This document shows positions 2,942 to 60,928 of a stretch of 64,000 bases of DNA, one piece after another (position 1 is the stretch's first letter; every line of letters starts with the position of its first letter). Made by a program: the position numbers and the translations under genes. The stretch covers positions 83,108 through 147,107 of the forward strand of contig JBAYIR010000001.1 in NCBI GenBank assembly GCA_041665505.1, in the 5' to 3' direction. This stretch comes from Patescibacteria group bacterium (GTDB taxonomy: Bacteria; Patescibacteriota; Patescibacteriia; UBA1558; GWA2-36-10). The notes beneath the pieces were generated by a model that saw nothing but the letters and a program-made list of their open reading frames with translations, was not told the origin of the DNA and did not search any database.

Positions 2942-4225
2942 ATGCCGGATAAAATAAAAAAAATTACAGCTATAGAAATACTTGATTCGCGTGGTAATCC
3001 TACTATAGAAACAACAGTAGAACTGTCAAATGGCCTTTCCGCTAGTGCGGCTGTGCCATCTGGCGCTTCCACTGGTCGTTTTGAGGCATATGAATTAAGA
3101 GATGGAGATAAAGATAGATATGGCGGTCAGGGAGTACTCAAAGCGGTCGCCAATGTCAATAATATTTTAAATGAAGAATTAAGTGGTTTATCAGCTACAG
3201 AGCAGAGCAAAATTGATAATTTGATGATTAAGATTGATGGCACTAGCAACAAAAAAAAATTGGGCGCCAATGCTATTTTGTCTGTTTCTTTAGCTGTGGC
3301 TCAGGCGGCGGCCAAGTTTAATAACCTAGAGCTTTATCAGTATTTAAGAAGACTTTATGATCCTAAGTTAAAAAAATATAGCTTGCCGACGCCAGTGGTC
3401 AATGTCATAAATGGCGGTCGTCATGCTTCTACCAATATAAATATTCAAGAGTTTTGGTTAGCACCTGAAAAAACGCCTATTTTTTCCGAAAAATTACGTC
3501 AGGCTAGTGAAATATTTCATAAACTAGGGGAACTTTTAGAAGCGGCTGGCTATGATACTGATTTGGGTAATGAAGGTGGTTATGCTCCCAATGTCAAATC
3601 TCACAAACAAGTTTTTGAATTTATTATTCAAGCCATAGAATCTAGCGGCTATAAGGCCGGTCGTGATATATTTTTGGGAATTGATGCTGGGGCTTCAGAA
3701 TTTTATGATAATAAAAATAAAAAATATAACTTAGCTTTAGAAAAGCAGATAATGACGGATGATGAGTTAATAGATTTTTATTTTGATTTGATGGAAATTT
3801 ACCCTTTGACACTAATTGAAGATCCACTAGATCAAGAAGATTGGTCAGCTTGGGCTGATATTAGTAATGACGAGTTTATTAAAAAAAATAATATAAAAAT
3901 AATTGGTGATGATCTTTTTGTAACCAATATCGAACGTCTCAAAAAAGGAGTGTCTATGGGTGTAGCCAATAGTATTTTGATAAAACCCAACCAAATTGGC
4001 ACCTTGACTGAGACCTTAGCCACTATCCACTATGCCAAGGCTAATGGCTACAAAATTATAGTTTCTCATCGCAGTGGTGAAACACTAGATACTACGATTG
4101 CTGATTTAGCAGTAGCAGTCAATGCTGATTATATCAAAACTGGTTCCACAGCTAGAGGCGAGCGTATTGTCAAATACAACAGGTTATTAAAAATTGAACA
4201 AAAATTGTCTACACAGCAGCTTTAG
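2942..4225 (+). CDS. eno: enolase (phosphopyruvate hydratase)
   Basis: 427 aa; ITAIEILDSRGNPTIE N-terminus and SHRSGETxD motif typical of enolase. Confidence 0.95.
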   Translation: MPDKIKKITAIEILDSRGNPTIETTVELSNGLSASAAVPSGASTGRFEAYELRDGDKDRYGGQGVLKAVANVNNILNEELSGLSATEQSKIDNLMIKIDGTSNKKKLGANAILSVSLAVAQAAAKFNNLELYQYLRRLYDPKLKKYSLPTPVVNVINGGRHASTNINIQEFWLAPEKTPIFSEKLRQASEIFHKLGELLEAAGYDTDLGNEGGYAPNVKSHKQVFEFIIQAIESSGYKAGRDIFLGIDAGASEFYDNKNKKYNLALEKQIMTDDELIDFYFDLMEIYPLTLIEDPLDQEDWSAWADISNDEFIKKNNIKIIGDDLFVTNIERLKKGVSMGVANSILIKPNQIGTLTETLATIHYAKANGYKIIVSHRSGETLDTTIADLAVAVNADYIKTGSTARGERIVKYNRLLKIEQKLSTQQL

Positions 4226-18420: not shown

Positions 18421-19410
18421 ATGAGTCAAGATTATAAGCACATTAGCGTGCTACTTGATGAAGTTATAGAATTTTTAAATCCTAGTAGCAACCAAAATTA
18501 TATTGACCTTACTTTAGGAGGTGGAGGACACAGTGGTGCTATTTTAGCTAAGACAGGTCCAAAGGGTAAAGTATTGGCCTTTGAGATGGACACTAGGGCT
18601 ATTAACGCGGCTAAAAATAATTTGTCAGAATACCTGCCTACCGGACAGGCAGGTAGAGATAGACTGATTATTGTAAATAGTAGTTATATAAATTTAGAAA
18701 CAGAAGTAAAAAATAAAGATATTAAAAATATTTCTGGTATTGTTGCAGATTTAGGTTTGTCGTCTGACCAATTGGATAAAGCAGATAGGGGATTCTCATT
18801 CAAAGATCATGGACCACTGGACATGAGATTTGATCCAAATGGTCAGACTCCGACAGCTTCAGATATAGTCATGAACTCAACTGAGGCACAAATTTTAAAA
18901 ATATTTCGTGAGTATGGTGAAGTAAAACAGGCCAAGCGCCTGGCTAGAGGACTTGTCCTCTGGCGAAAAGATTTAGGTAAACAAAAACAAAAATCTATAA
19001 AAACTTCCATGCTTGTCAACGCCATACTCCGAATATTGAATATAAAAGAAGAGAGTTTGAAACGATTTCGTATCCATCCAGCCACGCAAGTGTTCCAAGC
19101 TCTACGTATAGCAGTCAACGATGAACTTAATAATTTACAAAAAGTTTTGCCACAAGCTTATAATATTCTATCTCCAGGCGGGCGTCTGGCGATCATCACT
19201 TTCCATTCTCTTGAAGATCGTATAGTCAAACACTATTTCAAGAATCTAAGCAAAGGATGTATTTGCCCGCCAGAGACTCCAGTCTGTCGCTGTAATAATC
19301 AAGCCAAGGTAAAACTTATTACTAAGAAAGCTATTAAAGCTTTACCAAAAGAAGTGGATAAAAATTTTCGTAGCCGCAGTGCTATATTAAGAGTAATAGA
19401 AAAAATATAA
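18421..19410 (+). CDS. rsmH: 16S rRNA (cytosine1402-N4)-methyltransferase RsmH
   Basis: 329 aa; HISVLLDEVIEFL...YIDLTLGGGGHS motif. Confidence 0.9.
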   Translation: MSQDYKHISVLLDEVIEFLNPSSNQNYIDLTLGGGGHSGAILAKTGPKGKVLAFEMDTRAINAAKNNLSEYLPTGQAGRDRLIIVNSSYINLETEVKNKDIKNISGIVADLGLSSDQLDKADRGFSFKDHGPLDMRFDPNGQTPTASDIVMNSTEAQILKIFREYGEVKQAKRLARGLVLWRKDLGKQKQKSIKTSMLVNAILRILNIKEESLKRFRIHPATQVFQALRIAVNDELNNLQKVLPQAYNILSPGGRLAIITFHSLEDRIVKHYFKNLSKGCICPPETPVCRCNNQAKVKLITKKAIKALPKEVDKNFRSRSAILRVIEKI

Positions 19411-22964: not shown

Positions 22965-23075
22965 CTTGACTATAGTTTAAATATTTGTTAGAAATATATC
23001 TGTTTTATAGTCCCATACCGTTATTAGGCGGATGGGAGTTTAATAATTATGTTGTTAATATTTATAATATTTTAT

Positions 23076-23228: not shown

Positions 23229-23354
23229 TTCGACTCCGTTCTGCTCTGCAGAACTTCGCTCATGGTCTGCGACCACAAAAGTAAATTAAAATATAAGGTG
23301 TCGAATGTCCTGAGCGGAGTCCTGAGTTTATCGGAGGACGAAGTCGAAGGACAT
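23226..23354 (+). ncRNA. conserved structured tRNA 3'-trailer element, copy 1 (unknown family)
   Basis: Starts at the tRNA-Val CCA with TTCGACTCCG. Shares hairpin, ACTTCGCTCA/TGAGCGRAGT long-range pair, TGGTC/GACCA stem and CATTCGACTCC/GG(A/T)GTCGAATG closing helix with copies at 28003..27891(-) and 58824..58946(+). Followed by weak hairpin plus T7. Confidence 0.5.
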
Positions 23355-23383: not shown

Positions 23384-23430
23384 TTTTGTTGAAAAAAGAA
23401 GGCCGCCGCCACGTCAGACGTGGCGGCGGC
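23384..23430 (-). terminator. GC-rich palindromic terminator of cassette B1
   Basis: gccgccgccacg-tcaga-cgtggcggcggc 12-bp stem; A-run on plus (T-run on minus) at 23391-23397. Confidence 0.6.
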
Positions 23431-23445
23431 ATGAAGCGATATGAC

Positions 23446-24111
23446 CTAGCCGAGGTCGGCTTGGTCGAGGAGGCTCTTCTCGTATCTCTCGGCCACTTCG
23501 AGCTGATGCATCAGCCCATCGATGGCCATCTGGATGAGGTCTTCCCGGCAGGTCGGGACAGCTACAAAGCGTCTAGCCGCTTTGTCAGTTGGGAACATCA
23601 CAACCATCCACCAGCCTGCGGTAATTCCGCCGATTCCTTTGACCTTGCTACCGTAGGTGGTTGCCTTACCATCGACGATATCGTCGGGATTCTCCAAGCC
23701 GTAGCCATGGAAGCAGCGATAGTCGGGACCATGACGCTTGAATCGCAGGACCGCCACGACGGGTATTCTCACGTATTGATGGTACGTGGCAGCAGAGCAG
23801 CTGGTCGCCCTGACGATCTCGTTGTAGAACCCATCTTTGCGCTGAATTCTGATCAGCTGGTCAGAGAGGTCTCCCAGGACCGTCTTGATCTCCGAGCTGT
23901 CTGCAATCGGCCGTGCTATGACCGTGGTGGCCTGGGGGTTGACCTTGATGTCCAGCAGTGCAAAGCCGGCTTTTGCCAAGCTGATGGGGGACTCCGGATC
24001 GAGGGTGCCAGTAGCTACATCGTCTCTACCGATTCCCCAACGAAAACAATGATTGCCGTCGAGCCGTACCACACCAGTGGTGTAGATGGGGTCACAATTT
24101 TGTGCCTGCAT
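23446..24111 (-). CDS. high-GC hypothetical cytoplasmic protein (foreign cassette B1)
   Basis: Preferred start ATG 24111 with GGAGG(24123..24119)-7 nt-ATG, giving 221 aa; track start 24147 lacks SD. Natural-looking composition, unlike the plus-strand antisense ORF 23386..24153. No family recognised. Confidence 0.5.
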   Translation of the reverse strand: MQAQNCDPIYTTGVVRLDGNHCFRWGIGRDDVATGTLDPESPISLAKAGFALLDIKVNPQATTVIARPIADSSEIKTVLGDLSDQLIRIQRKDGFYNEIVRATSCSAATYHQYVRIPVVAVLRFKRHGPDYRCFHGYGLENPDDIVDGKATTYGSKVKGIGGITAGWWMVVMFPTDKAARRFVAVPTCREDLIQMAIDGLMHQLEVAERYEKSLLDQADLG

Positions 24112-24193
24112 TGGGAATCCTCCAGATTTAGTTGCATTTGTCTGCATTTATGATGCCTGCTGGCACCATTGTTCCTAGAGTTAGGAACAAAGT

Positions 24194-24222
24194 ATTATAC
24201 TATTATTTATTTTTTTTGTCAA
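24194..24222 (-). promoter_or_regulatory. perfect consensus sigma70 promoter TTGACA-17-TATAAT driving B1 (minus)
   Basis: plus attata 24194-24199, tgtcaa 24217-24222, 17-nt spacer counted. 5' UTR begins with 7-bp hairpin gttccta-actc-taggaac. Confidence 0.6.
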
Positions 24223-24235
24223 TGGTTGTTATATT

Positions 24236-24278
24236 TAAAGAAAATTAAGACCGCCGCGCATCCAGGGACGCGCGGCGG
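24236..24278 (-). terminator. GC-rich hairpin terminator of cassette B2
   Basis: ccgccgcgc-atccagggac-gcgcggcgg 9-bp stem, A/T-rich tract on minus side after hairpin. Confidence 0.55.
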
Positions 24279-24290
24279 CTACGGAGGATA

Positions 24291-24791
24291 CTACGGAAGT
24301 ATCTTCCAGACGGTAGGATTTCTTTTCCGGAAACTCTTGATGCTCTGCTCTCGGTGCATATTTTTGGCCAACACTACGGCCAAGATCAGAAGCATCAGAG
24401 CCATGAGGCTCTTGAACAGAGCCAAAATCCCTTGACCTAAAGGAGCGTGGATGGTGTGGACGGACATCGTCGCAACCAGTTTGTCTCCTTTGGTCTCGTA
24501 GACCATGAACTGGTACTGACCGAAGACGATCAGTGCTTCTTCGCCACTTTTGATGGTGGCGAGGTGCCGGCTGTTCTTGATGACCTTGAAGTAACACTCC
24601 TTGGAGTCGATGGTGACCAGCGCATGTTCGCTAATCTTGAAATCGACACTGTCGCCGTCCCGAAGGACAGCTCCAGTCACAGGAATCCGGTCATTCTCCG
24701 AACGAATATGGAGCTCGATAGCTCCTTCGCTCGCACGGACGACGGTGGTGGCACAGATCAGAATGGCGATGGTCAGAAGAAGAGTCTTCAT
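24291..24791 (-). CDS. high-GC secreted protein with N-terminal signal peptide and C-terminal TM anchor (foreign cassette B2)
   Basis: 166 aa; MKTLLLTIAILICATTVVRASEG signal peptide; C-terminal LMALMLLILAVVLA hydrophobic helix; AAAGGA SD 8 nt before ATG. Confidence 0.5.
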   Translation of the reverse strand: MKTLLLTIAILICATTVVRASEGAIELHIRSENDRIPVTGAVLRDGDSVDFKISEHALVTIDSKECYFKVIKNSRHLATIKSGEEALIVFGQYQFMVYETKGDKLVATMSVHTIHAPLGQGILALFKSLMALMLLILAVVLAKNMHREQSIKSFRKRNPTVWKILP

Positions 24792-24894
24792 GTCGCGAGT
24801 CCTTTCGCTTGCAGTTTCAGGTTCCTTCCCTCTTTATTTTAAAGGCTTTTGAGCCTTTTGTGACGTCAATGAGCTTGCTTTAAGCAATTATCTA

Positions 24895-27782: not shown

Positions 27783-27855
27783 GCCTGTATTAATTCGTAG
27801 GCTTAGCTTAACTCATTTTTCCTTATTTTTCAAGCTTTTTTATAGACAGTTTATG

Positions 27856-27885
27856 CCCAAATAAAAAACAGCCTTTTGGCTGATA
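27856..27885 (-). terminator. terminator following trailer copy 2 (minus strand)
   Basis: minus strand reads cagcc-aaaa-ggctg followed by ttttttatttg. Confidence 0.45.
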
Positions 27886-27890
27886 TTTAA

Positions 27891-28003
27891 GTGTCCTTCG
27901 GTTCGCTATGCTCACTCAGGACATTCGACACCTTATATTTTAATTTACTTTTGTGGTCGAAGACCATGAGCGAAGTTCTGCAAAGCAGAACGGAGTCGAA
28001 TGG
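27891..28003 (-). ncRNA. conserved structured tRNA 3'-trailer element, copy 2 (inverted relative to copy 1)
   Basis: Reverse complement is identical to copy 1 over ~95 nt except two substitutions, both in hairpin loops (tc->tt, tgc->ttc); begins at the tRNA-Lys CCA. Confidence 0.5.
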
Positions 28004-28077
28004 TGCGCCCAGAGGGATTCGAACCCCCGACCGTTTGCTTAAAAGGCAACTGCTCTACCAGGCTGAGCTATAGGCGC
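28001..28077 (-). tRNA. tRNA-Lys (anticodon TTT), CCA encoded
   Basis: Reverse complement GCGCCTATAGCTCAGCCTGGTAGAGCAGTTGCCTTTTAAGCAAACGGTCGGGGGTTCGAATCCCTCTGGGCGCACCA folds as cloverleaf, anticodon loop CTTTTAA. Confidence 0.85.
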
Positions 28078-28206
28078 GTATGAAAAATTAAAATTTGTAA
28101 ATTATCAATGATCTGGCCTATCTATCTTGGAGGCGAAGCCTGGAAGGCTGCCTGTCCCGCGTAGCTTTAGCGAAGCGGGGAGCTATAGGCGCATGTTTTT
28201 TTGAGC

Positions 28207-28232
28207 TACCTGCCTGCCGGCAGGCAGGTAGG
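28207..28232. repeat. perfect 26-bp palindrome ctacctgcctgc-cg-gcaggcaggtag, flanked by partial copies of the tRNA-Lys 5' end
   Basis: Seen directly; taggcgcgtatgaaaaattaaa at 28232-28253 repeats 28071-28092; gagctataggcgca at 28182-28195 repeats tRNA positions 1-13. Confidence 0.6.
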
Positions 28233-28298
28233 CGCGTATGAAAAATTAAATGTAAAATACGGAGATTAGTATATACATTTTTGTTTGTATTGTCAATA

Positions 28299-30110
28299 TT
28301 ACATTATCTCTGGTGCTTTGATACCAAGTAGAGCTAGACCATCTTTTAAGACATTTTTGGTGAGTTTAGAAATAGCTAGTCTAATTTGTTTGCTTGACTG
28401 GCCTTCGGCATTTAAAACGCTATGTTGTTGGTAAAAATTATTATATGTTTTAGCTAAATCAAATAAATATTGAGAAATCAAAGAAGGGTTTTTATCAATA
28501 GCTGCTTTTTGAATAATATTGGTAAATATTAATAAAGTTTTGACTAATTTTCGTTCTTCTTTATTAAAATTAAAATCTTTTATTTTAGTCAAATTATTTA
28601 TTTTGTCACCTTTTTTTAGCATCGTTGAAATTCTAGCATGGGTATATTGAATAAAAGTACCAGTGTAACCGTCAAAAGAGATGGACTGAGCTGGTTTGAA
28701 AACTATATTTTTTTGTGGATTGGTAGCTAGCATAAAAAATTTAAGAGCTCCTAAACCCACAATTTTTGAGATATCTTCTTTTTGCTCTTCAGAACTATCA
28801 ACTTTTTTCTCGGCTTTACTCATAATTTCTTTGGCCGAATTTATCATCGTTGTTATCAGCTCATCAGCGTCAGCTGTCTTGCCTTCACGGGATTTTATTT
28901 TGCCACCAGGTAAAGAAACCATGCCGTATGATAGGTGATATAAATTTTTGGCCCAGTCAAAGCCTAATTTTTGTAAAGTCAAAAATAATACTTTAAAGTG
29001 ATATTCTTGTTCATTGGCTACCACATAGATAGCTTGGTCAAATTTGAATTTTTTGTATCTACTTTCAGCTGTGCCCAAATCTTGAGTAATATAAACTGAT
29101 GTGCCATCAGAGCGCAAGACTATTTTTTGATCCAAACCATCACTAGTCAAGTCTATCCAAATAGAGCCATCATCTTTTTGAAAAAATACTTTTTGTTTTA
29201 GACCTTTGGTTATTATATCTTTGCCTAGTAGATAATTTTCAGATTCAAAATCCAAATGGTCAAATTCAATGCCTAAATCATGATAAGTTTTGTCATAACC
29301 AATATAAACCCAATCATTCATAGTCTTCCAGAGCTGATATACTTGAGGATCGTTGTTCTCCCAAGCCAATAACATGGCTCTAGCTTTTTTCATCCAACTG
29401 GAGTGATCTAAAAATTTTTCTTCAGTTTTTTTGCGTTCTAAATTATCCAATTTATCTAAGTCAATATTATTTTTAGCATAATATTTTTCGGCTTCCTCTT
29501 TGAGTAATTGACCAAACTTTACATAATATTTACCGACCAAATGGTCTCCTTTAATACCAGATGATTGGGGAGTTTCACCATTACCAAATTCTTGCCAGGC
29601 CAGCATACTTTTTACAATATGAATGCCGCGGTCATTGATAATATTGACAGCCGTAGTTTTGTAGCCAGCGGCTCTAAAGATATTGACTAGCGCTTGGCCG
29701 ATACAATCATTACGGACATGACCGACATGTTGAGGTTTGTTGGTGTTTGGTCCAGAAAATTCGATTAGTATTTTTTTATTTTGTCCGTATTTGCTTTGAC
29801 CAAATTTTTTGTTTTTAGCTATTTGGTCAATAGATTCTTTGATAAAATCATTACTGACAAAAATATTGAGATAAGGGCCAATATTTTTTACTTGAGTTAT
29901 AGCTGCTCCAATTTGATATTTATCAGCTAGTTCTTTGGCAATGGTGACTGGATTTTGACCTAATTTTTCGGCTAAGTCAAAACAGGGGAAAGCATAATCT
30001 CCTAATTCTTCTTGTGGGGGATAGTCTAAATCAAAATCATCTATTTTTTGCTGATAGATAGCTTTTAAATTAATCCTAATGTCTTGTTTGATTTTAGCAA
30101 TAGCGTCCAT
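28299..30110 (-). CDS. argS: arginyl-tRNA synthetase
   Basis: 603 aa class I aaRS; PNTNKPQHVGHVRN HIGH-region as in ArgS. Confidence 0.8.
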   Translation of the reverse strand: MDAIAKIKQDIRINLKAIYQQKIDDFDLDYPPQEELGDYAFPCFDLAEKLGQNPVTIAKELADKYQIGAAITQVKNIGPYLNIFVSNDFIKESIDQIAKNKKFGQSKYGQNKKILIEFSGPNTNKPQHVGHVRNDCIGQALVNIFRAAGYKTTAVNIINDRGIHIVKSMLAWQEFGNGETPQSSGIKGDHLVGKYYVKFGQLLKEEAEKYYAKNNIDLDKLDNLERKKTEEKFLDHSSWMKKARAMLLAWENNDPQVYQLWKTMNDWVYIGYDKTYHDLGIEFDHLDFESENYLLGKDIITKGLKQKVFFQKDDGSIWIDLTSDGLDQKIVLRSDGTSVYITQDLGTAESRYKKFKFDQAIYVVANEQEYHFKVLFLTLQKLGFDWAKNLYHLSYGMVSLPGGKIKSREGKTADADELITTMINSAKEIMSKAEKKVDSSEEQKEDISKIVGLGALKFFMLATNPQKNIVFKPAQSISFDGYTGTFIQYTHARISTMLKKGDKINNLTKIKDFNFNKEERKLVKTLLIFTNIIQKAAIDKNPSLISQYLFDLAKTYNNFYQQHSVLNAEGQSSKQIRLAISKLTKNVLKDGLALLGIKAPEIM

Positions 30111-49325: not shown

Positions 49326-49366
49326 TTGTTGATTGGTAGATCAATAGGCAGGCAGGGAGCAGCTTG

Positions 49367-58431: not shown

Positions 58432-58515
58432 TAATTTGAAAATATAATTGTCTTACAGTTGGTGAAGATTTTTCTGCTTACCGGCAGTTAGCTACCAGCT
58501 GTTAATTTTTTATAT

Positions 58516-58601: not shown

Positions 58602-58751
58602 TCCTTTTTGTATTTTAGTAGTTAGAAATTAATTTGTCGTCTGCCGTCATAGCTCCCCGCACAGTCCTGCGGACTTGACGGGGCGAGTGTTGGTAAAATA
58701 AAGAGTAATAGGCACTTTCTTAGTTTAGTATATAAAATAAGTTTATTATCT

Positions 58752-58823
<72 letters not shown>

Positions 58824-58826
<3 letters not shown>

Positions 58827-58946
58827 TTCGACTCCGTCCCGCTAAAGCGGGACTTCGCTCATGGTCTTCATCCTCACCGCCATAGGCGGTTCGGATTGCG
58901 ACCACTTTTCTAGGAGTCGAATGCCCTGAGCGAAGTCGAGGGGCAT
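58824..58946 (+). ncRNA. conserved structured tRNA 3'-trailer element, copy 3 (divergent, with compensatory stem changes)
   Basis: TTCGACTCCG then hairpin gtcccgc-taaa-gcgggac (vs gttctgc-tc-gcagaac in copies 1/2), conserved ACTTCGCTCA...TGAGCGAAGT pair, TGGTC/GACCA stem carrying an inserted ccgcc-ata-ggcgg hairpin, perfect 11-bp closing helix CATTCGACTCC/GGAGTCGAATG. Confidence 0.5.
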
Positions 58947-59620: not shown

Positions 59621-60928
59621 ATGTTTAAAATGAACTTAAACAAGTACTTAATTCTTTCTTTAGTCATTCTAACGGGCTTTGGCTCATTAGTAGCTAATGC
59701 CAAGGAAGATTTAATTATTTCTGGTGATACAATAGCCGAAGTATTGACTGATGAACCTACTTTAGCAATTTGTGACCATAATGGTGATGGTTTTAGGAAT
59801 TTAAGTGATGTGAGTCTATTTGCCGAAGTTAAGGATTCCTTCTCTCTTTCTGAAATTGCTGAATATGCTGAACACAATCAAGATAACGATTGGTGTGAAG
59901 CACATTTTTGGCCTTCTGAAAGAGTAGAGGAAACTACAGCTACTTTGGCTATCTGTGACCACAATGGAGACCATGTCAGAAATTTAAGCGATGTAGCTAT
60001 GTTTGCTGAATGTGCTGAGACATTTGATGTCGATGGTAATGGTATCCATGATTTGTCTGATATATCTTTGTATACTTCAAACAACCAAGACGACACTTGG
60101 TGTGCTAGTGATTTTGATTGTGAGGCTATTCCCAATGCTGAGCCAGCTTATGTTACTGAAAATCTAGATGTAGTTTCTAGCACTTTAGCTATTTGTGACC
60201 ACAATGGTGATGGTTTAAGAAATCTAAGTGATGTCAGTGAATTTGCTTCTTGTGTTGATACTTTTGATGCCAATGGTGATAATAGACACGATCTATTAGA
60301 TACTAGTGCTTATGCTTCAAATAACCAAGATAACATTTGGTGTAGAGATAGCTTTGTTTGTGATGTGGCTACTAGTACAGAAGCTCTTTATAGTACTGAA
60401 GTGGTAGAAGAACCAGTTACTCCTTTAGCTATTTGTGACCACAATGGTGATGGTTTAAGAAATCTAAGTGATGTCAGTGAATTTGCTTCTTGTGTTGATA
60501 CTTTTGATGCCAATGGAGATGGTGTGCATAACTTAGAAGATGTAAGTGAATATGCTACAAATAAGTTTAGAACTGATACTTGGTGTACTACAACTTTTGA
60601 ATGTGTAGCTACTCCTAAATCTGTTTTAGCTGGTGGATCAACTTTTTTCAACCAACCAATATCTGAAATTGAAGGCGAAGTTTTAGGTGAAAAAATTGAA
60701 GCAGAAGAAGATGTTTTAGAAACAGAAGTTTGTACTTATAATACTCCAGATGCTGATATATTAGGAAAAACTGATTGGTCTGACGGTAGTTTGATTAGAG
60801 GTTGCGGACCAGAAATTTATGTTATTGAGAATCAACAAAAGCGTCATATCAGATCTTTAGAAGAATTATTCAATTATATTGGTCAAAGAATTAATAATGT
60901 TACTAACGATATATTGAGTTTATTCTAA
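59621..60928 (+). CDS. secreted protein with four dockerin/EF-hand-like Ca-binding repeat modules
   Basis: 435 aa; signal peptide MFKMNLNKYLILSLVILTGFGSLVANA; four ~80-aa modules LAICDHNGDGxRNLSDV...DxNGDGxHxLxD...NNQDxxWC; two modules identical at DNA level over >110 bp (60181-60300 vs 60421-60540). Confidence 0.6.
   Translation: MFKMNLNKYLILSLVILTGFGSLVANAKEDLIISGDTIAEVLTDEPTLAICDHNGDGFRNLSDVSLFAEVKDSFSLSEIAEYAEHNQDNDWCEAHFWPSERVEETTATLAICDHNGDHVRNLSDVAMFAECAETFDVDGNGIHDLSDISLYTSNNQDDTWCASDFDCEAIPNAEPAYVTENLDVVSSTLAICDHNGDGLRNLSDVSEFASCVDTFDANGDNRHDLLDTSAYASNNQDNIWCRDSFVCDVATSTEALYSTEVVEEPVTPLAICDHNGDGLRNLSDVSEFASCVDTFDANGDGVHNLEDVSEYATNKFRTDTWCTTTFECVATPKSVLAGGSTFFNQPISEIEGEVLGEKIEAEEDVLETEVCTYNTPDADILGKTDWSDGSLIRGCGPEIYVIENQQKRHIRSLEELFNYIGQRINNVTNDILSLF

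Follow-up and report, generated by a model that had tools for sequence, protein, structure and literature searches.

A recurrent hairpin-forming element upstream of tRNA genes carries copies of the tRNA 5' end

Upstream of tRNA-Lys(UUU) and tRNA-Thr(GGU), two of the six tRNA genes in the window (the whole 64-kb stretch of DNA that was analyzed, which belongs to a 350-kb metagenomic contig of a small-genome Patescibacteria bacterium near Candidatus Komeilibacteria), lies a copy of the 5' end of the tRNA itself joined to a GC-rich hairpin. A metagenome scan found 28 nonredundant copies of one such architecture 5' of tRNA genes, most of them from metagenomes in which Patescibacteria (candidate phyla radiation, CPR) are abundant. 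This insertion family is recurrent, structured, and apparently undescribed: no description of the architecture was found in the literature, where papers on the SegB endonuclease were the only related ones, and Rfam contained no family matching the element. Anatomy, family recurrence, covariation in the structure, empty sites in relatives, and an orthologous promoter were all observed; candidate mechanisms for the duplication would be a mobile hairpin, snap-back template switching, and nuclease-induced repair. Insertion and duplication within the ancestral tRNA gene could well account for each pseudo-5' end, as the left flank of such an event.

Copies of the tRNA 5' end in the window

The first 13 nt of tRNA-Lys (GCGCCTATAGCTC) are duplicated exactly, 115 nt upstream of the gene, and the copy is followed by the hairpin CCCGC..GCGGG (Table 1). 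The first 13 nt of tRNA-Thr(GGU) recur at 58643-58655, 109 nt upstream, with identity over 16 nt from 58640 (TCTGCCGTCATAGCTC). Each 13-mer had exactly two occurrences in 64 kb versus 0.00 expected from 100 dinucleotide-preserving shuffles, which ruled out a chance origin of the matches. The repeats are separated by 102 nt (28078-28179) at the Lys locus and by 96 nt (58656-58751) at the Thr locus, in both cases without a protein-coding ORF, and the junction ATAGCTC/CCCGC (slashes mark junctions) is common to the two sites and occurs nowhere else in the window. A first-pass annotation of this DNA had pointed to both copies and their GC hairpins, which are indeed present and beyond chance. It had proposed that 13-mers at chance level and a lack of matches at other tRNAs would speak against it; the copies recur at other tRNAs, and so its claim passed that test.

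Table 1. Coordinates of the element-bearing loci and associated features in the window
Feature	Position	Strand	Description
tRNA-Val 3' trailer	23229-23345	+	~110 nt, structured
tRNA-Lys 3' trailer	27890-28000	-	~110 nt, structured
Intact tRNA-Lys(UUU)	28001-28077	-	tRNA gene call
Proximal leader copy	28078-28101	-	tttacaaattttaatttttcatac; immediately 5' of intact tRNA-Lys
P0 3' strand	28116-28121	-	AUAGGC; complements nt 3-8 of the pseudo-5' end
H2 segment	28133-28149	-	AGCCT (nt 14-18 copy) plus CCAGGCT (inverted nt 20-14), forming hairpin H2, then UCGC
Hairpin module H1	28150-28179	-	CCCGC-UUCG-CUAAAG-CUACG-CGGG-A-CAGGC, at tRNA position 13/14
Middle pseudo-5' end	28180-28192	-	tRNA-Lys nt 1-13 exactly; 5' strand of helix P0 plus base of hairpin H1
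Distal Lys copy	28203-28250	-	Leader tttaatttttcatac, GCGCCTA, 20-bp palindrome, TAGCTC; ancestral tRNA start
Palindrome CCTGCCTGCCGGCAGGCAGG	28209-28228		Perfect, 20 bp; interrupts the distal Lys copy at nt 7/8
Predicted promoter, sigma-70 type	28268-28296	-	TTGACA-17-TATACT; 11/12 consensus positions; overlaps the end of the ArgRS gene
Candidate remnant 5' of tRNA-Thr(CGU)	49332-49366	+	9-nt D-loop copy ATTGGTAGA plus AGGCAGGCAGGGAGCAGCTTG, ending 1 nt before the tRNA
Distal Thr copy	58606-58655	+	tRNA-Tyr-to-tRNA-Thr spacer plus tRNA-Thr(GGU) nt 1-13; repeats 58716-58764
Thr hairpin module	58656-58685	+	30 nt, GC-rich; at position 13/14 of the distal Thr copy
AGTG	58686-58689	+	tRNA-Thr nt 14-17 resuming past the module; single 4-nt match, read directly
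Intact tRNA-Thr(GGU)	58752-58826	+	tRNA gene call
tRNA-Thr(GGU) 3' trailer	58827-58945	+	~110 nt, structured

At the Lys locus, the direct repeat begins near the predicted transcript start and extends to nt 13. A 22-nt repeat, TAGGCGCGTATGAAAAATTAAA, comprising leader and the first 7 nt of tRNA-Lys, occurs at 28071-28092 and 28229-28250, and a third copy of the 13-mer is interrupted exactly between A7 and T8 by a perfect 20-bp palindrome, which its natural CTA/TAG flanks lengthen to 26 bp. It had been annotated as a perfect 26-bp palindrome at 28207-28232; it exists, at 28206-28231, and its perfect core is 20 bp. When the hairpin module is taken out, the Lys copy continues to tRNA nt 17 (AGCC at 28149-28146). 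The whole element (28125-28192) scored 65.4 bits with the covariance model R1, and its hairpin H1 is ~80% identical to a hairpin copy nested in the tRNA-Lys 3' trailer of a relative (L135). An origin of the element as a relic of the tRNA-Lys body was ruled out, there being no similarity (P = 0.94). The Rfam scan of the window matched only tRNAs and the L10 leader, and a permissive scan (E values up to 10) of 27800-28330 gave nothing credible. A further R1 match in the window, at 24712-24816, lies within coding sequence, is weak (E = 0.42), and was judged spurious.

A near-palindrome, TACCTGCCTACCGGACAGGCAGGTA, resembling the 20-bp palindrome of the tRNA-Lys leader was seen at 18631-18655 inside rsmH (18421-19410). 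It is in frame and coincides with an insertion of ~9 residues (SEYLPTGQA) relative to Escherichia coli RsmH (3TKA); protein genes may tolerate such tiny palindromic insertions.

At the Thr locus, the direct repeat runs from ~5 nt past the CCA of tRNA-Tyr to nt 13; between the distal copy and its counterpart, the leader part is 73 to 83% identical and TCTGCCGTCATAGCTC matches at 16/16 positions. The Thr element is without the conserved core block of the family, and R1 gave no match to it. Its AGTG agrees with the rule for nt 14 to 17 seen in 28/28 family members. The possibility that the Thr hairpin is a relic of the tRNA's own T-arm was also considered, and the local alignment score (21, versus 15.5 ± 3.2 for shuffled sequences; P ~ 0.08) was not significant; a module at position 13/14 with AGTG resuming afterwards fits better. 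A related motif that the first-pass annotation had placed 5' of tRNA-Thr(CGU), GGCAGGCAGG, is present at 49347-49356, and the candidate remnant that contains it is probably, though on weak evidence, a degenerate member of the same kind of event.

Several other stretches of the window attracted attention. The sequence CTTACCGGCAGTTAGCTACCAGCTG (58478-58505), upstream of tRNA-Tyr, resembles the family block GGCAG..AGCT.CCAGCT; the closest relative (L139) has AT-rich sequence in its place, and CTTACCGGCAGTTAGCTACCAGCTG may have changed recently or be a further remnant. Upstream of tRNA-Glu, at 22998-23040, is a GC-richer hairpin (TCCCATACC..GGCGGATGGGA) with no clear copy of the tRNA 5' end. Directly 3' of the tRNA-Glu/Val operon and its trailer, the stretch 23386-24850 has a GC content of ~55% versus ~35% elsewhere. 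It contains two ORFs on the minus strand (233 and 166 aa), both of which have a terminator-like hairpin of their own, and it resembles an acquired island beside a tRNA. In addition, 240-nt repeats at 59757-60564, within a 435-aa ORF, encode a recurring LAICDHNGDG..NLSDVS motif.

A family of elements at tRNA position 13/14

The query of the metagenome scan was the block common to the window and two further loci (L004 and L006). The element was found at tRNAs for Val, Ile, Lys, Arg, Asp, and Trp, representing ~10 tRNA species (anticodon types), and the 28 nonredundant copies scored 50 to 82 bits with R1, as a multicopy hairpin family. The parts of the element are arranged in the following order: tRNA nt 1 to 13, the GC hairpin module, nt 14 to 17, an inverted copy of the tRNA's own 5' end, a spacer, and the intact tRNA. 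In its family form, H1 reads CC(G)CC-UUCG-variable inner stem-CUACG-GG(C)GG-G-CAGGC, and the base of H1 is paired with tRNA-like nt 10 to 13. The 4 nt after CAGGC are the tRNA's own nt 14 to 17 in 28/28 copies (24 AGCT and 4 AGCC); this copy and the complement of nt 14 to 19/20 make up hairpin H2, past which come UCGC and then a stretch complementary to nt 1 to 9 (helix P0).

The 13-mer was identical to the tRNA in 19/30 tabulated instances, among which tandem units of one locus (L104) were counted separately, and it was 1 to 2 nt off in 10 more. The flanking direct repeats vary from 13 to ~50 nt, with the right boundary fixed at nt 13/14, and the distance from the conserved core block to tRNA position +1 is 43 to 46 nt in most copies (the largest group). 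The sequence TAGCTC stands at nt 8 to 13 in 24/24 element-bearing tRNAs versus 31/56 other tRNAs. Furthermore, a scan of species-representative genomes for the 3' trailer motif gave 26 loci, where several tRNAs were preceded, at -92 to -130 nt, by a duplicate of their own 5' end. In the collected loci as a whole, a set enriched by the way it was found, 23 of 75 nonredundant tRNAs had an upstream own-5' copy of at least 10 nt.

Traces of repeated events were found in individual genomes. In one Peregrinibacteria genome, the H1 of the tRNA-Val(CAC) element is near-identical to that of an older copy 5' of tRNA-Arg(UCU), and the latter has Arg-specific flanks, with nt 14 to 19 resuming after CAGGC. 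Three identical tandem 75-nt units are present at L104, and L016 has tandem arrays along with older, decayed copies where tRNA sequence carries on past the module. An older pseudo-tRNA-Lys(CUU) at L094 has the module at 13/14 and the tRNA body continuing past it.

Upstream copies of another kind were seen at L009 (7060-7190, Ala-UGC) and L025 (838-942, Thr-UGU). They reach the anticodon loop (nt 38 and nt 35, respectively) and are broken by different GC-rich hairpin inserts, after which the tRNA sequence resumes; the phenomenon therefore also occurs with other break points. Carriage of the element on viruses was rejected, as viral contigs gave only weak, core-only matches and no trailer.

Conservation of the RNA fold

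Pairing in H1 and H2 was kept in 95.4% of alignment cells (a cell being one sequence at one base pair), compared with 19 to 53% in slid-partner controls. Double-sided pair-keeping changes in H1 and H2 amounted to 22 cells versus 6.0 ± 1.8 after shuffling (0/500 shuffles reached 22), and a compensatory pair change is present in H2. For P0, the pairing score summed over elements with their own 9-mers was 139, versus 119.9 ± 4.1 when the 9-mers were permuted among elements (0/5,000). The deviations of P0 from a perfect complement are mainly G·U pairs, which points to selection on the tRNA-sense RNA, and drifted distal copies with T8 changed to G (L039, L045, and L089) form new base pairs with the P0 partner. 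As for pseudo-tRNA decoys, which the first-pass annotation had suggested as a possible reading, the pseudo-5' copy pairs with an internal self-complement, and there is no whole-tRNA mimicry. The minimum-free-energy fold of the Lys element of the window is a three-way junction with a z score of only -1.2, and the thermodynamic z scores (-1.2 and -0.6) are unremarkable. Covariation and G·U wobbles support a predicted three-way junction (P0, H1, and H2) as the fold of the copy. The self-pairing of the pseudo-5' end may persist because it avoids interference with tRNA folding; the covariation and compensatory changes represent selection on the RNA fold and are equally compatible with a positive function.

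One such function would be a cis-regulatory leader that gates tRNA maturation by attenuator logic, an explanation considered unlikely. Four regions would take part: the pseudo-5' strand (region 1), the P0 3' strand (region 2), the real tRNA 5' strand (region 3), and the 3' acceptor strand (region 4). The pairings 1:2 and 3:4 would be productive, and 2:3 would sequester the tRNA 5' end and leave no RNase P substrate; region 2 is able to pair with either partner because regions 1 and 3 are the same in sequence. Gating would agree with a fold kept on the tRNA-sense strand with covariation and G·U pairs, with the compensatory changes between drifted pseudo-copies and their partners, with the constant core-to-tRNA distance in the largest copy group, and with a core that outconserves the spacer between orthologues. 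However, the element is dispensable, being absent from the same tRNA in four close relatives; there is no evident ligand or sensing partner; the tandem arrays and decayed copies resemble mutational products; and no terminator or other expression platform lies 3' of the element. The likeness to an attenuator, with segments pairing 1:2/3:4 or 2:3, is one of possible working and not of family membership: in contrast to attenuator leaders, the element has no terminator, leader peptide, or specifier and precedes a tRNA, not an mRNA.

Occupied and empty sites among relatives

At the ArgRS-tRNA-Lys-DnaB locus, empty sites were found in the following relatives: L135/136 (81% ArgRS identity), L131 (77%, from the same sample as the window), L138 (77%), and L132 (76%). 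All share the promoter and leader of the window, and an intact tRNA-Lys comes immediately after the leader. When seven relatives are aligned, the start of the intact tRNA coincides exactly with that of the palindrome-interrupted distal copy of the window, and the pseudo-5' ends are therefore read as flanks of an insertion and duplication in the ancestral tRNA gene. The element is present in L133 (69% ArgRS identity) and L096, where the 3' trailer, the third copy, and the palindrome are all missing. Occupied (window and L133) and empty orthologous sites together constitute a presence/absence polymorphism among close relatives.

The closest relative at this locus (L130/L137) has GCACCTA/CCTGCCTGC and then a different, longer sequence where the window has the bare palindrome. 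Its contig ends 30 nt after CCTGCCTGC (at 3412), and that of L139 ends in the T-arm of tRNA-Tyr (at 2541); both were left out of the comparison because their contigs end inside these loci. Such contig ends inside tRNA loci suggest repeats or population heterogeneity, and the element would account for the assembly breaks at the tRNA loci of relatives. At the Thr locus, one relative (L140) has an 85-aa GIY-YIG ORF between tRNA-Tyr and tRNA-Thr(GGU) and no pseudo-copy, and another (L007) has a trailer there.

The predicted promoter of tRNA-Lys is the sole promoter-like site in the region, lies upstream of all copies, and is orthologous in the seven relatives; TTGACA-17-TATACT is read as the ancestral tRNA-Lys promoter. 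Strong promoters, with 11 to 12 of 12 consensus positions, were predicted 5' of the pseudo-copy in the window, L096, L133, and L037. No convincing site for a further promoter was found in the interval from the element to the tRNA; the strong ones lie upstream of the element. Because the only good promoter is upstream of all copies, transcription from this old promoter probably includes the pseudo-5' ends in a long structured leader. An intrinsic terminator is predicted 3' of the tRNA-Lys trailer.

3' trailers and GIY-YIG ORFs

The 3' trailers of tRNA-Val, tRNA-Lys, and tRNA-Thr(GGU) in the window start within the CCA and share the motif CA/UUCGACUCC..hairpin..CUUCGCUCAUGG..GGAGUCGAAUG..CUGAGCGAAG, with pseudoknot-like pairing. 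This motif, which is not in Rfam, follows many different tRNAs and tmRNAs in the 26 genome loci, which are labeled as metagenome-assembled genomes of very different phyla, and in four of these loci it is followed by an 82- to 91-aa GIY-YIG ORF; the trailer may be a homing cassette resembling that of SegB, or it may be a processing element. In relatives, 3' trailers contain the same type of hairpin built on the CCA end (in L138, CCA-UCC-UUCG-..-CUACG-GAUGG). The element could have been linked to the large 3' trailer (CCA/TTCGACTCC...), but this was rejected, since each occurs independently: the trailer is found without the element at tRNA-Val in the window and at many fetched loci, and the element is found without the trailer in L096 and L133 and at most element-bearing tRNAs.

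GIY-YIG ORFs near tRNAs were found in the relatives L140, L004, and L005 (83 to 85 aa) and in L019 and L022; none was found in the 64-kb window by a crude motif scan. The phage T4/T6 homing endonuclease SegB, of the GIY-YIG type, recognizes a T-loop motif in tRNA genes and cuts after CCAR (PMC2330249), and, by way of microhomology, it causes tRNA segments to amplify in unstable tandem arrays (PMC13096335). The copies could accordingly be scars of breaks made in tRNA genes by such endonucleases, with segments duplicated by misaligned or microhomology-mediated repair and decaying later, a scenario held to be quite unlikely. It shares with the SegB case the use of tRNA genes as targets and unstable tandem repeats with junctions in tRNA sequence, as in the arrays of L104 and L016, and in relatives small GIY-YIG ORFs come directly after tRNA or tmRNA genes, in L140 at the very place where the window has its pseudo-copy. 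However, SegB cuts at the tRNA 3' end, whereas the junctions here are in the D-loop at nt 13/14; the window loci contain no nuclease gene; the conserved hairpin module has no SegB counterpart and is left unexplained; and the 3' trailers found with GIY-YIG ORFs show no link to the element.

Comparison with known mobile and duplicated sequences

Partial tRNA duplications are an established hallmark of integrative elements, and tRNA genes are usually viewed as passive landing pads whose 3' ends are duplicated by integrases. As at the attL/attR sites of tyrosine integrases, a partial tRNA direct repeat flanks inserted DNA here and the tRNA stays intact, and trailer, element, and tRNA occur together at two window loci. 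Even so, integrase attL/attR footprints or a mobile cassette of promoter, tRNA, and trailer are highly improbable and already contradicted. Just ~100 nt lie between the repeats, without an integrase; the insert itself is only ~60 to 110 nt and also includes an inverted target copy; the repeated part is the 5' end (nt 1 to 13/17 plus leader) and not the 3' part from the crossover to the gene end; the promoter is ancestral; and element and trailer are independent of each other. What had been proposed from the window, a footprint of site-specific insertion, holds insofar as the event lay inside the tRNA gene and duplicated its 5' end; the spacing of ~100 nt and the lack of a recombinase gene do not fit a classical integrase. 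The further idea of a mobile promoter-tRNA-trailer unit fails, as element and trailer are independent, and the promoter and leader are ancestral in seven relatives.

Among known kinds of sequence, palindromic mini-elements and tRNA-gene target duplications come closest. Rickettsia palindromic elements, REP/BIME sequences, and yeast mitochondrial GC clusters are small palindromic mobile elements. They resemble the element as short GC-rich, hairpin-forming insertions in an AT-rich genome and at the flanks of RNA genes, and the likeness extends to a similar palindrome in frame in a protein gene (here rsmH), to presence/absence polymorphism, and to nesting (L135 and L126). In contrast to these, the element is bound to one exact position (13/14) of the tRNA gene and comes with locus-specific direct and inverted target copies, and the 64-kb window holds only one full family copy. 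To our knowledge, no transposase is cognate to the element; none was seen in the fetched loci, which are genome fragments, nor was an autonomous partner, and the DNA between the repeats is free of genes for a transposase, recombinase, or reverse transcriptase.

Tandem inversion duplications in Salmonella arise by snap-back at quasi-palindromes. The likeness consists in the direct-inverted-direct order, in one junction at a palindromic site (CAGCTG in the D-loop), and in the later remodeling by deletion that would be expected. Here the order holds for short segments, as seen in the 3' strands of H2 and P0, and this mechanism leaves the conserved non-tRNA parts unexplained. Unlike the Salmonella duplications, which span kilobases, those here span tens of bases, an RNA-level structure is maintained, and non-tRNA parts are conserved across loci.

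Proposed origin of the element

The generator favored here, to which about an even chance is given, is a mobile hairpin module whose insertion copies the flanking target in both orientations. If the element were mobile in the generic way, an inverted copy of the target specific to each locus would not be expected in it, and pure template switching would not explain the non-tRNA parts (the UUCG/CUACG frame, CAGGC, and UCGC) conserved across tRNAs and lineages. Because generic mobility leaves the inverted copies unaccounted for and snap-back at the D-loop CAGCTG does the same for the non-tRNA parts, the module that copies in both orientations is preferred.

In the proposed sequence of events, a small GC-rich hairpin module, CC..-UUCG-inner stem-CUACG-..GG-CAGGC, would insert exactly between tRNA nt 13 and 14, by mobility of the module or by snap-back template switching at the palindromic D-arm. 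A direct copy of the tRNA 5' segment (from about the transcript start to nt 13 to 17) would regenerate an intact gene downstream, and an inverted copy of the same segment would provide the 3' strands of H2 and P0. The original promoter would still drive the locus, so that the scar would be transcribed as a 5' leader of ~115 to 190 nt. In this leader the pseudo-5' strand would pair with its own inverted copy into the P0/H1/H2 three-way junction, without competition for the 3' acceptor strand, and RNase P would then remove the leader.

A more far-reaching reading joins this origin to gating. It posits a mini-element specific to tRNA genes of Patescibacteria (CPR) that inserts at D-loop position 13/14, recopies the tRNA 5' end, and persists as a self-folding three-way-junction leader domain able to capture the real 5' strand, in effect a mobile RNA-level gate on tRNA maturation; as a whole, this is a doubtful proposition. 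The 3' trailers of these lineages have hairpins in which the CCA end is sequestered, and the mini-element may be related to them.

Implications

In place of the usual 3'-end duplications, the 5' end is duplicated here at one exact nucleotide, with a conserved hairpin and an inverted target copy. The product would be a pre-tRNA leader, long and structured, that recurs at many tRNAs and in many lineages of a radiation that is uncultured and poorly understood. The covariance model can be used to annotate these regions, and such fragments should not be called pseudo-tRNAs or att sites. A mobile module would represent a new means by which an essential gene is invaded and yet survives; a functional one would add a new layer of control, or of quality control, over tRNA maturation.
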